A DNA stretch of 34,410 nt from a virus (IMGVR_UViG_2579778652_000012:1-34410); one strand, 5' to 3'; counted from the first letter of the stretch, positions 28,739 to 34,410 are shown. Notes: generated from the sequence alone by a model not told the origin. Translations and numbers: made by a program.

Positions 28739-28755
28739 ATTGCTCTAATAAATAT
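28739..28755 (+). promoter_or_regulatory. C1 operator-like 17-mer upstream of the uhr-hrdC-dmt operon
   Basis: ATTGCTCTAATAAATAT, one mismatch to consensus, followed by the conserved TGTTTTTTATGTCG promoter-like extension shared with the ant and kilA sites. Confidence 0.5.
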
Positions 28756-28826: not shown

Positions 28827-29111
28827 ATGCAGATGGAGCTAATAAGCCGCAAGGAGTTCGATAGCCGTGTAACCAGCGGTGAACTCGACAACTTGCAGGC
28901 TATCAAGGTGAAAGAAGGCTTTTGCCTCATTGGGAATCAGAGCGGAACAAATCGCGTTTTTATGCTTCGCCGTACGGATTTGAAGCCATTTGTCTGGAAG
29001 AACGAAATTGGTCCCAGCTCATACGCTCAAACGAGGGGGTGCCACAACCTGGCCTTTTTCTACAAAGACGAGCTTTCTGTGGTTGATATTCAAGGGTTAC
29101 AACATGTTTAA
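28827..29111 (+). CDS. small hypothetical protein upstream of hrdC (Uhr-like position)
   Basis: Track ORF is 28755..29111, but its start coincides with the operator; GGAG lies 7 nt upstream of the ATG at 28827 ([11 protein letters not shown]...). Confidence 0.4.
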
Positions 29112-30009
29112 GCACTGGAAAAACATTACTATTTATAAACTTTCTCGTGAGGCGGATCTGACCGACTTAGAAGATAAAAAGAAAATGCTCCTTTTCACGC
29201 CATGCGGTAGTCAGGATATGGCCAAGTTCGGTTTTGTATCTCCATTTGGTGATAATTCCGAAGTTATCGCTATGCATGGAAATGGTTTTATCCTTGTTGA
29301 AGCAAAGCGCGAAACAAAAATTCTTCCCCCGCCGGTTATCCAGCGAGCTATTCAAGAAAAAATTGAAAAACTTGAGCAAGAACAAGCGCGTAAACTGAAG
29401 AAAACAGAGAAGGACTCCCTGAAAGACGAAGTTCTGCATTCTCTTCTGCCACGGGCTTTTTCAAAGTTTTCTGTTATCCAGGCGATCTACGACGGTTCAA
29501 CTAAACGTATCTATATCAATGCCAGCGCGCGGCAGGCAGAGGATATGCTCGCGCTTATGCGTAAGTCTCTGGGTTCTCTTCCTGTTGTTCCCCTGAGTGT
29601 TGAAAATCCCATTGCATTAACGCTGACCGACTGGGTACGTGATGGTAGTGCTCCACAGGGATTTCAAATGGGGGATGCGGCAGAACTCAAGGCAGTGCTT
29701 GAGGATGGCGGTATTGCCCGAGTGAAAAAGCAGGATTTGGGAAGCGATGAAATTTCCACACACCTGGAAGCTGGCAAGCTCGTCACTAAGTTGGCACTCG
29801 ACTGGCAGAACCGCATTAAATTTACACTGGACCATAACTTCAGCCTTACCAGCGTCAAATTTGCGGATGAATTGCTTGAGCAGAACTCTGATATTGATAG
29901 TGAAGATGTTGCGCAGCGACTGGACGCAGATTTCTTCCTGTTGACCAGTGAAATTTCGTGCCTGGTTGATGCTCTGGTAAATGCCCTTGGCGGAGAGGCT
30001 AAGCAGTGA
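29104..30009 (+). CDS. hrdC: RdgC-like recombination-associated protein (P1 HrdC-like)
   Basis: [16 protein letters not shown]...[17 protein letters not shown]... closely parallels the E. coli RdgC N-terminus (MLWFKNLMVYRLSRE...[11 protein letters not shown]..., recalled). The internal ATG at 29104 gives 301 aa, the RdgC size; the track start at 28990 adds 38 non-homologous residues. Confidence 0.75.
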
Positions 30010-33000
30010 AAGAGCTGTGCTATGGATCTGTTTGCAGTGGAATTGAAGCCGCGAGTATTGCCTGGGAACCGTTGGGTATGCGTCCGGCGTGGTTTGCTGA
30101 AATCGAGCCTTTTCCATCGGCCGTTCTTGCGCTCCGCTGGCCCCATGTTGTCAACCTTGGCGACATGACAAAACTTGCCAAAAAAGTCTTGGCTGGGGAA
30201 ATCGAATCCCCTGACGTGCTCGTCGGGGGAACACCATGTTTTACCGCGGGGCATATGGTTCTTTGTAAAAATGGCTATAAACCAATAGAAGATGTTTGCC
30301 CTGGCGATTACGTAGTCAGTCATCTCGGGCGGTTACAACAAGTAAAAAGAGTTGGTTCAAAAATAGCTAATACGGGGTTACTTAATGCCGTTGGGCAGCC
30401 TTTAGGTATAAGAACAACCAATGACCATCCCTTCCTGGCTGTTCGGTGGAAAGCCCAAAACACCCGGAAAAATGGCACATATTTTAAGAGAGAGTTGTTG
30501 TCTGAACCGGAATGGCGAGCAGCATGTGATATGCCGGGATATCAATGGTGCGCTCTAACTAATTTCAATATTGCATCTCCAGATATTTGTTCTCGGTTCT
30601 TGTCTGAAGAACAGGCTATGTATCTTGCGGGCGCTTATGTTGGCGATGGATATATTAGGAGATGGAGAGGTAAATCTAAGAAGGCGGTTGTTTTTGGCAT
30701 AAATTGCCAGAAATTGAGAAAGTTTCATTGCCGCATACCAGAAAACATATTTTCCGTGGCAAGCGAAATCCGAGGGAGCATCAAAGTAACCTTGAATGAT
30801 ACGTGTTATGCCAATTGGCTTAATGAACATTTTGGCGAGTTAAGCCATGCTAAGCGTATCCCTGCATGGGTGATGTCGCATCCATTGCGTCATGTGTTTT
30901 TACAAGGCTATCTTGATACTGATGGGACACCAAGTGGTAAAGCGGGATTTAGAATTAATAGTGTTAGTCCTGCGCTTGCTTGGGGCGTTGCGGGGTTGTC
31001 ACAGACTTGTGGTTATGTTTCTTCGGTCAGCTTTATTGAAGTTGAGCCCAAAAAAGTGATCGAGGATCGCGTGGTAAATCAACGGAATTATTATCAGGTA
31101 ACAATCTGCCCGCAGAAATTGTCACGTAAATCAAGATTGGCTCATGGAATGCTTTTACGAACAGTCAAAGAGTTTAAATCGGTAGGCCTAGATACTGTAT
31201 ACAACATAGAAGTCGAAGGTGATCATTCCTATATCCTCAATGGTGCGGTGGTCCATAACTGTCAGGCATTCAGTATCGCGGGATTACGTGGTGGGCTTGA
31301 TGATGAGCGTGGCGCGCTAACTTTAAAGTATGTGGAGCTTGCAAATGCAATTGACGACAAACGGGCTGAGTCATTTCTCAAACCAGCCGTTATCGTCTGG
31401 GAAAATGTCCCAGGAGTCTTGTCATCGGCAGATAACGCCTTCGGATGTTTCCTTGCCGGATTGGCTGGAGAAGATGTGCCATTTGAACCAGGTGATCGAC
31501 CTGAATCAGGAAAAAGCAACGCGTTCTGGCGGTGGGATGGCAAAACCGGTTGCCATGTTCCAAAGTGGCCGCAGTGTGGTTGTATTTATGGACCGCAGCG
31601 AAAAGTGGCCTGGAGAATCCTTGATGCCCAATACTTCGGAGTGGCACAACGACGCCGACGCGTGTTTGTTGTCGCAAGTGCTCGAACAGACCTCGATCCC
31701 GCAACGGTACTTTTTGAGTTCGAAGGCGTGCGCCGGGATATTGCGCCGAGCAGAGGCGAGGGGAAGGAAGTTGCCGGAAATGTTGGAAATGGCATTAAAA
31801 GCGGGAGCCATTGGGATAACCCTGTAAATCCTCACCCGACACTTAACCAGTCACACAATACTGGTGGGATTGGTGCAAGTAACCAAGAGATTTTTGCGCA
31901 GCGAGGCAGCGGACTTGTGTATTGCATGGCGCATGGGCAAGGGGGGGCAGAAATAAAAAATGATGGGACATCACCTACTCTTACTTGTAATCATGAAGCT
32001 CCAATTGTGTTTTCTTGCAAGAAAGCTATTGCGTTTACAAGCAAAAATTATGGGCAGGATGCGGGTGTTGAGATTTCCCCAACTTTACGAGCTGGTAACT
32101 CTGCTAATAGCAATCAAAACGCGGGATGCCCACCAGCTGTTGCGTATTCGCTACAACATGCACAAATTGGGCGAAAAGATGATGCTGGACCGCAGGGTAA
32201 AGGGTGGCAAAAAGAGATAAGTTTTACTCTTGATTCCCGCGCAACAGCTGACGCCGTTGCGTTATCTTTTTGGGGGCAGGAAAGTATTGAAAAAGGCGAA
32301 TTAGGTGAGAATGGTTACTTACCTCATATGATGAGCGTTCGCCGTCTGACTCCTGTCGAATGTGAAAGGCTGCAAGGTTTTCCTGATGGACATACGTTGA
32401 TTCCAACGGGAAAGCGTAAGAAAGTTACTTCAGATGAACTTATATACCTTCGCAATCACGATCCTGATTTAAGTGAAGAAGAGGCCGCCATGCTTGCAGC
32501 TGACGGACCTCGTTACAAAGCTATCGGCAATAGTATGGCGATACCAGTAATGCGCTGGATTGGCGAGCGGATTACCAAGGCTGCATGTCGGCAGAAAGAA
32601 GGAAGTGAAACAAAAGAGCGAAAAGTTAAACCAGCGGCAGAATTCGAACGGTCCATATTCAAATGGGCTGGTGGAAAATTTGGTGTTCTGGAACAAATCT
32701 TTCGCTATTTGCCAGAAGGGAAGCGCCTGATTGAACCTTTCGTTGGTGGCGGAGCTGTCTTCATGAATGCCGGATACCAGGAAAATCTGCTAAATGATGT
32801 GAATGCTGACCTGATTAACTTTTACAAGACTCTGCAACGCGAGGCGCATTCACTTATCACTCTGGCACATCGTTTCTTCCAGGACTACAACACACAGGAA
32901 GGATACCTGGCAGTACGGAATGCGTTTAACAAACAAGTCTATGATGATTTACATCGCGCAGCGGCGTTTTTGTTCCTGAACCGACATTGTTTTAACGGAT

Positions 33001-33452
33001 TGACGCGTTACAACCAGGCCGGTGAGTTCAATGTCGGTTATGGGAAGTATAAAACTCCGTATTTCCCATTACAGGAGATGGAAGCCTTCCTCGGTGCGGA
33101 AGGGCGGTCTGAGTTTGTATGCGGTGATTTTGCAGCGGTGATTGAAGCTGCCGGAGAAGGAGATGTCATCTTTTGCGATCCGCCGTATGAACCGCTTCCA
33201 AATACAGAGGGATTCACGAACTATTCCGGTCATGACTTTAAGTTTGAAGAGCAAAAACGCCTGGTGTCTCTGTTGACGGATGCTCATCGTCGAGGTGCAA
33301 AAGTTCTCATTACTAACAGTGGCGCGCCAAACATCAGAGAGCTTTATCATGACAGTGGCTTCAGAGTGGAACCTCTTTTTGCCAGACGTTCTGTGTCTTG
33401 TAAGGGAGACACTCGAGGTGTTGCTCATGACGTTATAGCAATATTGCACTAA
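30006..33452 (+). CDS. dmt: bifunctional DNA methyltransferase Dmt: N-terminal C5-cytosine MTase (intein-interrupted) fused to C-terminal Dam-type N6-adenine MTase
   Basis: GTG start overlapping the hrdC stop, with GGAGAGG 7 nt upstream. C5-MTase motifs: [12 protein letters not shown] (PCQ, split by the intein), [23 protein letters not shown]. Dam-type domain from about nt 32613: [27 protein letters not shown] and catalytic DPPY, collinear with E. coli Dam. Confidence 0.85.
30237..31259 (+). mobile_element. intein (341 codons) with LAGLIDADG-type homing endonuclease domain, inserted in the PCQ motif of the Dmt C5-MTase domain
   Basis: Starts with Cys (CFTAGHMVL, block A-like); TTNDHPFL (block B T-x-x-H); [10 protein letters not shown] and GYLDTDGT (two LAGLIDADG-type motifs); ends ...[10 protein letters not shown] followed by +1 Cys (CQAFSIAG). 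In-frame removal restores [12 protein letters not shown]. Confidence 0.75.
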
Positions 33453-33466
33453 TAAATTTATTAGTG
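33443..33466. promoter_or_regulatory. bipartite (palindromic) C1 operator-like element overlapping the dmt stop codon
   Basis: ATTGCACTAATAAATTT (33443-33459, one mismatch to consensus) overlaps the perfect 20-bp palindrome CACTAATAAATTTATTAGTG (33447-33466), i.e. two inverted overlapping half-operators. Confidence 0.5.
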
Positions 33467-33636
33467 TAATATCGACTCAATGAATCGTGATTTATAGAGC
33501 GATTTAGCTGTTAGCCGCGACAGGCGCGGCGGCAAGTATGGCGGGGTAGTGACTCCTTCCCCATCATGACGCCGAGTTGCCAGGTTGACCATACGCCTAA
33601 GTGGCAACACCGAAGTGCGTTACGAGCTTCCAGTTT

Positions 33637-33662
33637 GCCCATCTTCGGGTGGGCGTTTTTTC
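33637..33662 (+). terminator. rho-independent terminator of the hrdC-dmt operon
   Basis: Hairpin gcccatc-ttcg-ggtgggc followed by a six-T run, about 185 nt after the dmt stop. Confidence 0.6.
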
Positions 33663-34126
33663 AGGGTTTTCGTCATGGTTAGCGACTTTGCGGCGGTTTA
33701 TAAACTGACCATTAAAGTAAATGCAAACGATGATCTGATGATGGTAGCGGCCTAAGAAGCCAGACGCCACGGGGTATGAGTCGTCCCCCGTCAAAAAATC
33801 GACCGCAGAGTGTCCCCGTCTGTGTATTAGGGAACGGGGAGGCACAACAGGTAAGGGCGCTGGTGTGATTAACCAGATGAACGAGAAGGGGCCATCTGTT
33901 GGTCAGCGTCCTTTCCTGTTGCGTCTTCTTTTCAGCGTAACAGCGGTGCTTAACAGCACTTTGGGTACAGTTCCACGAATTTACGGGTATATCCCGTCAT
34001 GCTGAAGGCGCTAATCACGCTGGAAGCCAGGGTTGTGCATCCCCTGTTACCGAATTGCAGCCAGGGCGCGGTGCGCCGAAAAGCATACGGAGGTGGAAGC
34101 CCTCGCCGGAGACGTACCCGGCAAGT

Positions 34127-34202
34127 GATGGTGTAGCTCAGCGGTTAGAGCGGTTGACTGTTAATCAACGGGTCGATGGTTCAAATCCATCCACCATCGC
34201 CA
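34127..34202 (+). tRNA. tRNA-Asn (anticodon GTT)
   Basis: Manual cloverleaf: acceptor GATGGTG/CACCATC, D-arm GCTC-AGCGGTTAG-AGC, anticodon arm GTTGA-CTGTTAA-TCAAC (GTT), T-arm GATGG-TTCAAAT-CCATC, discriminator G, encoded CCA. Confidence 0.85.
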
Positions 34203-34204
34203 AT

Positions 34205-34280
34205 GCCGGTTTAGCTCAGTTGGTAGAGCGCCTGCCTTGTAAGCAGGATGTCAGCGGTTCGAGTCCGTTAATCGGCACCA
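34205..34280 (+). tRNA. tRNA-Thr (anticodon TGT)
   Basis: Manual cloverleaf: acceptor GCCGGTT/AATCGGC (one G-U), D-arm GCTC-AGTTGGTAG-AGC, anticodon arm CCTGC-CTTGTAA-GCAGG (TGT), T-arm AGCGG-TTCGAGT-CCGTT, encoded CCA; 2 nt after tRNA-Asn. Confidence 0.85.
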
Positions 34281-34288
34281 GCACAACA

Positions 34289-34363
34289 GGTAAGGGTATT
34301 TTGCGACGTCGGAGATCGCCGAGCTTGGCAGAGGGTTCGAATCCCTACGAAGTACCCTTACCG
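34289..34363 (+). other. non-canonical tRNA-like element (canonical T-arm inside a long extended stem; possible degenerate third tRNA or structured RNA)
   Basis: Canonical T-loop GGTTCGAATCC at 34333-34343; 10-bp perfect closing stem GGTAAGGGTA/TACCCTTACC, extendable to about 20 bp over 34282-34368; the 25 nt between acceptor-like and T-arm cannot form both D and anticodon arms. Confidence 0.35.
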
Positions 34364-34410
34364 TTGTGATGAATGCGCAGGCTGATGCGCGAAAGACATT
34401 GCAGCTATTG

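Follow-up and report, generated by a model that had tools for sequence, protein, structure and literature searches.

The dmt gene of a P1-like phage-plasmid: a probable C5-cytosine and Dam-type methyltransferase fusion, split by an intein and bearing a variable region with four cassettes

The stretch of DNA studied here (IMGVR_UViG_2579778652_000012:1-34410; 34,410 nucleotides, hereafter the window) belongs to a P1-like phage-plasmid. Its positions 29000-34410 were 97-98% identical to P1, RCS47, P7 and relatives in alignments, and the genes from gpR up to the tRNA-Asn/Thr pair follow one another as in P1. The open reading frame (ORF) at 30006-33452 is very probably the dmt gene of this element, i.e., the last gene of the C1-repressed uhr-hrdC-dmt operon, and codes for a C5-cytosine (C5) methyltransferase fused to a Dam-type N6-adenine methyltransferase, in an allele that is split by an intein and carries four cassettes in its variable region. 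An earlier note on this DNA had placed both kinds of methylase domain in one polypeptide, and both passed the curated Pfam cut-offs. The parts of the gene, with the evidence for each, are the following (aa, amino acids).

30006..33452, + strand: dmt, bifunctional DNA methyltransferase precursor of 1148 aa, from the ORF and domain matches; identical to WP_029396074.1
30006..30236, + strand: N-extein, aa 1-77, with motif I (SVCSGIEAA), motif II (AEIE) and the GGTP of motif IV, from alignment with the intein-less P1 Dmt
30237..31259, + strand: intein, aa 78-418 (341 aa), with a two-motif LAGLIDADG homing endonuclease, from Pfam, NCBIfam, alignment, AlphaFold2 and Foldseek
31260..31751, + strand: C5 core of the C-extein, with catalytic Cys419 (CQAFS), motif VI (ENV) and motif VIII (QRRRR), from alignment, Pfam and a confident AlphaFold2 model
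31752..32339, + strand: variable (target-recognition) region between motifs VIII and IX, which differs among the P1 reference and RCS47, OP279344, CP027575 and the window
31803-31919, + strand: cassette A, from cassette comparison
31926-32009, + strand: cassette C, from cassette comparison
32031-32147, + strand: cassette D, from cassette comparison
32148-32264, + strand: cassette E, from cassette comparison
32340..32645, + strand: C5 motifs IX and X (GNSMAIPV), then a charged linker; nearly all columns invariant among four Dmt proteins, and matched by Pfam
32646..33443, + strand: Dam-type (D12 class) N6-adenine methyltransferase domain, aa 881-1146, from PF02086, TIGR00571 and Dam structures

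The profile searches supported both catalytic domains. MethyltransfD12 of Pfam (PF02086) matched aa 887-1119 (2.3e-56, 191.8 bits; cut-off 22), the NCBIfam model dam (TIGR00571) reached 249.9 bits (cut-off 114.85), and DNA_methylase (PF00145) matched the precursor with 3.3e-30 and 106.1 bits (cut-off 22). The NCBIfam model dcm (TIGR00675) stayed under its cut-off of 100.65 on the unspliced precursor, with 93.3 bits. Along the protein, ENV lies at aa 466-468, QRRRR at 548-552, GNSM at 841-844, KWAGGK at 886-891, a loop at 991-1003 and DPPY at 1058-1061, and the S-adenosylmethionine (AdoMet) motif FxGxG of the Dam half is PFVGGGAVF (aa 911-919). Motif I of the C5 half, SVCSGIEAA, is a CxGxx variant of FxGxG, its motif X reads IGNSMAIPV, and motifs I, VI, VIII, IX and X are conserved in the family. 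Of the C5 motifs that the earlier note had listed, ENV, QRRR and GNSM are present, but PCQ is not contiguous in the ORF, since it is split by the 341-aa intein. Motif IV there consists of GGTP, the intein (CFTAGH...VVHN) and CQAFS, with Pro77 and Cys419 341 residues apart, and GGTPCQAFS becomes contiguous only after splicing.

The C-terminal part is collinear with E. coli Dam, as the note had also held: its last 266 aa aligned without large gaps to residues 4-267 of the 278 residues of that enzyme (2g1p, 4rtj; E 2e-57), and the two have KWAGGK, FxGxG, DPPY and the NGL-R-YN loop in common. Unlike E. coli Dam, the Dam of Dmt is a fusion domain and not a stand-alone protein, and with the host-Dam equivalog NF008152 it scored 244.2 bits, under the cut-off of 441; it is therefore a member of the Dam family and not an orthologue of the host Dam. 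When the four Dmt proteins of the window (1148 aa), RCS47 (1095 aa), OP279344 (1013 aa) and the P1 reference (754 aa) were aligned, almost all columns outside the intein and the variable region were invariant, and the Dam half was almost identical to that of P1 Dmt. This near-identity suggests that the Dam half methylates GATC, P1 Dmt being a reported GATC methylase.

The intein lies between Pro77 and the catalytic Cys of motif IV, and therefore the same Cys is also the +1 nucleophile of the predicted splicing reaction. Hint_2, LAGLIDADG_3 and Intein_splicing of Pfam and intein_Cterm of NCBIfam matched it, and its junctions are exact when compared with the reference P1 (GGTP/CFTAGH…VVHN/CQAFS versus GGTPCQAFS), the intein-less insertion site being …GTCGGGGGAACACCT joined directly to TGTCAGGCATTCAGT…. 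The residues for splicing are C78, T138-x-x-H141 (T61 and H64 of the intein), H417-N418 and C419 at +1. Across 13 homologues C1, T61xxH64, D137/G138, D229/G230, N341 and the +1 Cys were invariant or nearly so, and the two LAGLIDADG motifs (LAGAYVGDG and LQGYLDTDG) have both acidic residues. A sequence search of the PDB with the intein gave only weak matches (best E 0.0014) and its placement came from the fold search, in which the AlphaFold2 model (predicted local distance difference test, pLDDT, 93.4) found TliVMA first (5.5e-16), followed by PI-SceI and PI-PfuI (to 3.5e-10). As in PI-SceI (1vde) and TliVMA (7qsu), a two-motif LAGLIDADG endonuclease is inserted in a Hint fold (Foldseek 5.5e-16 to 6.8e-16, TM score about 0.6) and the same splicing residues are conserved; unlike these two, with which its sequence identity is about 15%, the intein sits in a DNA methyltransferase, whose catalytic Cys serves as the +1 residue.

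Removal of the intein in silico was precise and in frame and restored the host motif, which together with the splicing residues and the Hint and LAGLIDADG folds places it among the class 1 inteins. The DNA_methylase score rose from 106.1 to 126.7 bits upon removal, motifs I-VI became contiguous, and positions 5-119 of the profile then covered aa 8-135. The spliced product would have 807 aa, the same length as the natural intein-less allele of pE2-2, from which it differs at 12 residues. With Pro77 and Cys419 kept apart by the intein, the precursor cannot assemble a C5 active site, and it is plausible that the cytosine activity requires splicing. About 460 residues lie between the intein and the start of the Dam domain, which follows the charged linker and has a complete stand-alone fold; judging from this anatomy, the domain could be active in a precursor that has not been spliced, or once C-terminal cleavage has taken place.

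As regards its distribution, the intein was found in 133 of the 498 dmt-bearing plasmids of PLSDB and in 152 of 5426 complete E. coli genomes, and in every listed match the surrounding gene bears the annotation of a Dam-family or a DNA cytosine methyltransferase. The intein DNA was 99.4-99.9% identical among the four alleles compared, the extein flanks of the same alleles 96.9-98.8%, and the intein was combined with at least three types of variable region. The version of the variable region found in the window occurred in 15 of the 498 plasmids, three times with the intein and 12 times without it. This uniformity over several dmt backgrounds fits a recent spread by homing. The codon 5' of the insertion was CCA in all four intein-bearing alleles and CCT in all three intein-less ones, and over 30192..30236 and the homologous sites the former read GAC…CCA and the latter GAT…CCT; the reference P1 has three further changes near the insertion (TGG GGT ACG), among them Gly74->Trp. 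In this small sample (n=7) the pattern could be caused either by a co-conversion tract or by polymorphism of the target site of the homing endonuclease.

Hint/LAGLIDADG insertions at the same site in motif IV, with relatives of the intein at 24-53% identity, were also seen in distant C5 methylases, including those of Mannheimia and Pseudonocardia, and this position looks like a recurrent site of intein insertion, which was not found documented in the literature searched. The distant intein-bearing C5 methylases include the HMMER representatives P0156, P0169, P0199 and P0238, of which P0156 is another fusion of C5 and Dam domains, with 54% identity, likewise 1148 aa and an intein at the same site. 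The proteins P0011, P0018, P0021 and P0022 were further carriers of related inteins grouped with this site, and a protein of Parvibaculum had a related intein but no C5-methylase match in Pfam.

The second part in which alleles of dmt differ is the variable region, the length of which was taken from QRRRRVF to RRLTP. Twelve cassettes of about 22-40 aa were defined and scored over about 120 homologues, with the following result for the four versions compared.

Window allele: variable region of 224 aa, cassettes A, C, D and E
P1 reference and RCS47: variable region of 171 aa, cassette B as the sole match among the 12 cassettes
OP279344: variable region of 89 aa, cassette C
CP027575: variable region of 279 aa, cassettes A, B, C2, D and E

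As read from the sequences, each cassette has a core of the form (S/T/C)-L-x-(A/S/C/G), like the cores of the target-recognition domains (TRDs) of C5 methylases. Proteins of the family contain one to six cassettes in varying sets and orders while motifs VIII and IX remain intact, and recombination of these cassettes also extends to stand-alone C5 methylases of phages. A cassette may stand alone, as C does in OP279344 and as A does in P0092, beside sequence that matches none of the 12, and the order may be changed, C preceding A in P0118. The region between motifs VIII and IX thus contains tandem cassettes, putative recognition modules, whose gain, loss and reordering can occur independently, and in this it resembles multispecific enzymes. 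In the multispecific C5 methylases of temperate Bacillus phages a single catalytic core bears a tandem series of recognition domains; these enzymes are made upon induction and give protection from several restriction systems (PMC12707154, PMC8936443). As in the enzymes of SPR, phi3T, rho11s and H2, the modules of Dmt are short, lie in tandem between motifs VIII and IX on a single core and are phage-borne, whereas Dmt is in addition fused to Dam and split by an intein. The likeness is one of architecture, and multispecificity of Dmt is putative. Tentatively, shuffling of cassettes, of which this allele has four, may make the C5 half a multispecific methyltransferase, so that P1-like phage-plasmids would differ in their combinatorial anti-restriction methylomes, and a homing intein would spread independently among the alleles and gate only the cytosine activity, the Dam half staying active.

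It is quite possible, on the other hand, that the variable region is one large TRD of a single specificity and that the cassettes are interchangeable structural segments of it. In the AlphaFold2 model of the C-extein the core was confident, and the cassette region had a pLDDT of 27-45, with no secondary structure and no modular fold, so that the model is uninformative on modular TRDs. When the PDB was searched with the variable region, the sole alignment was a non-significant one (E 0.8), between the segment immediately preceding motif IX and the TL region of M.HhaI, and none of the source names returned by the protein searches gave a recognition sequence for 5-methylcytosine (m5C). Against a single compact domain it may be said that its parts would not be expected to tolerate the loss and reordering of cassettes, which occur alone, in numbers from one to six and in differing orders, with motifs VIII and IX kept; the TRD-like core in every cassette also speaks against it.

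Compared with P1 Dmt (AAQ14041, AF234172; 754 aa), the window has the same uhr-hrdC-dmt locus behind Odmt and Pdmt, the same GTGA overlap and the same fusion of C5 and Dam domains, with catalytic cores and Dam half nearly identical; unlike the window allele, P1 has no intein, and its variable region is one of 171 aa with B instead of 224 aa with A, C, D and E. The Dmt of RCS47 (CDN90818, 1095 aa) and that of the P1 isolate OP279344 (UYD72463, 1013 aa) have the same intein at the same site, with DNA 99.4-99.9% identical, and differ from the window in that the former has the variable region of the P1 reference and the latter only cassette C. The intein and the one-cassette variable region of OP279344.1 ('Escherichia phage P1 isolate del res del mod') are both absent from AF234172, and therefore strains called 'P1' vary at dmt.

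The assignment to the P1 operon is based on the following features around the gene.

28739..28755, + strand: operator Odmt (former Op68) of the C1 repressor, ATTGCTCTAATAAATAT, identical to the annotated operator of P1 AF234172
28755..28784, + strand: promoter Pdmt (-35 TTGTTT, -10 TACCAT), 100% identical to the annotated P1 promoter, driving uhr-hrdC-dmt
28827..29111, + strand: uhr, first gene of the operon, with length and position as in P1 uhr and an 8-nt overlap with the start of hrdC
29104..30009, + strand: hrdC, RdgC family (PF04381, NF001462), 301 aa from ATG as in P1
29992..29998, + strand: Shine-Dalgarno sequence GGAGAGG for dmt, within the 3' end of hrdC and 7 nt before the GTG
33443..33470, + strand: divalent C1 operator Obanab of the next operon, from the P1 annotation and alignment, with one substitution relative to P1

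A consensus promoter scan missed Pdmt, and Pfam and NCBIfam searches with uhr gave no match. HrdC, a name (hrdC/rdgC) already annotated in P1 and RCS47, matched RdgC (PF04381) with 6.8e-98 and 328 bits (cut-off 25) and NF001462 with 376.8 bits (cut-off 330). The overlap of the dmt start with the hrdC stop, to which the earlier note had pointed, can be read directly: GTG at 30006-30008 overlaps TGA at 30007-30009 within GTGA (30006-30009; context GCTAAGCAGTGAAAGAG / GCTAAGCAGTGAAAG). The GTG is a credible start because the next in-frame start, Met25, would drop motif I. The records of P1 and RCS47, among others, annotate uhr-hrdC-dmt in this arrangement, with the same 4-nt overlap, and synteny, Odmt, Pdmt and the start/stop overlap of the P1 Dmt locus were all found in the window. 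The overlap and the Shine-Dalgarno sequence suggest that translation of dmt is coupled to that of hrdC. For an internal promoter that would serve the Dam half alone, the scan found none, with two promoter-like sites compared with 7.4 expected by chance.

At the 3' end the dmt stop codon (33450-33452) falls inside Obanab, and the substitution in this operator (ATTGCACTAA versus ATTGCTCTAA in P1) also alters the C-terminus of Dmt, which is …VIAILH instead of …VLGILL. A hairpin just 3' of dmt (about 33540..33575, at the start of the dicF-like region of P1) has both arms changed, GGGG…CCCC compared with CTGGG…CCCAG in P1, and after it a strong intrinsic terminator follows at 33636..33655, with an 8-bp stem and a T run. 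Rfam found only the two tRNAs 3' of dmt, with no match above threshold in the dicF-like region.

The role of the Dam half has to be considered together with the plasmid origin, for which two features are relevant.

26393..26486, - strand: GATC cluster of oriR, 6 GATC in 94 bp, five of them in AGATCC-type repeats, by a DnaA box and iterons and upstream of repA
25324..26244, - strand: repA, Rep3-type, 306 aa, with weak Rep3_N and Rep3_C matches

The earlier note was right that the origin has a dense GATC cluster, 26393-26486 being the densest 100-bp stretch of the window, while GATC is not enriched window-wide (145 found, 129 +/- 11 expected). It had further tied the Dam half to replication control, i.e., methylation of this cluster in the prophage-plasmid state, and this part of its proposal fared poorly and appears unlikely. 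The position of the cluster beside the DnaA box and iterons would favour it, and P1 oriR reportedly requires adenine methylation. However, Odmt and Pdmt are 100% conserved, and because of this dmt should be silent, repressed by C1, in the plasmid state, when oriR is used. Enterobacterial hosts moreover supply Dam, and mini-P1 replicons that lack dmt replicate in dam+ but not in dam- cells, host Dam being sufficient. In the literature P1 Dmt serves to methylate pac for packaging, a function that is required only when the host is Dam- (PMC12707154), and dmt was non-essential in a P1 CRISPR interference (CRISPRi) screen (PMC10695390). The oriR and Dmt share the GATC mark, and the writer at oriR is likely the host Dam.

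Some other characters of this region were observed. The replicon of the window (25324..26500, - strand) is not that of P1, with a DnaA box and an origin arrangement of five GATC present, and direct repeats of the TTGACTnTnCGCGATTT type lie upstream of repA at about 26300-26390, which look different from what we take to be the P1 iterons. An ORF of 269 aa with a T5orf172 domain (PF10544, 9e-6) lies at 24222..25031 (- strand) between parA (22857..24053) and repA, a space in which P1 has no annotated gene; a paper on P1-like plasmids mentions '2 orfs inserted between repA and parA' in one element.

Several points weigh against the account of Dmt as an intein-gated enzyme with two activities and a cassette-set specificity, besides the low confidence of the AlphaFold2 model in the cassette region. 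At two residues that we take to be GATC contacts of E. coli Dam (2G1P), Dmt differs (P134->G and R137->K). The same residues are found in P1 Dmt, itself reported to methylate GATC. Reports of splicing, homing or m5C methylation by any Dmt were not found in the searchable literature, and the annotation of P1 Dmt (GenBank AF234172) gives a bifunctional DNA methyltransferase for N6 adenine in GATC and only 'perhaps' for C5 cytosine. Dam+ hosts can do without dmt, so that an inactive C5 half or an intein unable to splice may persist for a while, and Dmt would then be a Dam-only enzyme with a large inert N-terminal extension. Such a loss is improbable here: C1, TxxH, the penultimate His, the terminal Asn, the +1 Cys and both LAGLIDADG aspartates are intact, and so are all six C5 motifs examined (I, IV, VI, VIII, IX and X); an open ORF of at least 99% identity occurs in more than 150 genomes; and the higher identity of the intein than of its flanks points to recent active spread. 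No frameshifts were found, the same 1148-aa ORF being present in independent plasmids, e.g., CP100532, CP148408 and CP071390. A pseudogene or an assembly artefact was considered and rejected because the ORF is intact and recurs in many independent assemblies.

For the intein-gated, bifunctional Dmt, the following course of events may be proposed. Upon infection or induction, C1 repression would be lifted and uhr-hrdC-dmt transcribed, and dmt would be translated from its own Shine-Dalgarno sequence, with the GTGA overlap with hrdC helping. The precursor would splice into the 807-aa enzyme and a free endonuclease, which could copy the intein into intein-less dmt alleles. The Dam half would methylate GATC, as P1 Dmt does, for pac cleavage when host Dam is absent, and the C5 half would methylate a motif, or several, that the cassettes determine, with protection against restriction as the most likely purpose.

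The two-domain fusion of Dmt and its overlap with hrdC are already known features of P1 and are ordinary. Fusions of C5 and D12 domains were found in at least 8 clusters at 50% identity (HMMER, 1.84 billion representatives), and the architecture is therefore that of a small family and not a one-off. The exact 1148-aa protein is WP_029396074.1, whose 90% cluster has 260 members with forms of 1148 and 807 aa mixed. Publicly, the members are named only 'Dam family site-specific DNA-(adenine-N6)-methyltransferase', which reflects neither the C5 domain nor the intein, and one fragment is misnamed 'multidrug DMT transporter permease', apparently via the gene name dmt. Neither a homing intein at the catalytic Cys nor a cassette recognition region was found described for P1-like elements in the searchable literature, and both belong to known kinds, active-site inteins and phage methylases with multiple TRDs, respectively.

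Based on the results of this study, the current naming conceals the C5 methylase, the intein and the hypervariable recognition region across hundreds of E. coli and Salmonella phage-plasmids, and many of these bear resistance genes. With the intein it can be tested in a natural setting, and in a genetically tractable E. coli phage, whether splicing gates the activity of a single domain in a two-enzyme fusion; the intein is also a new predicted LAGLIDADG endonuclease with a defined target. If the cassettes set the m5C specificity, they would shape which restriction systems these elements can cross (Type II, and oppositely those of the McrBC type), and hence their host range.

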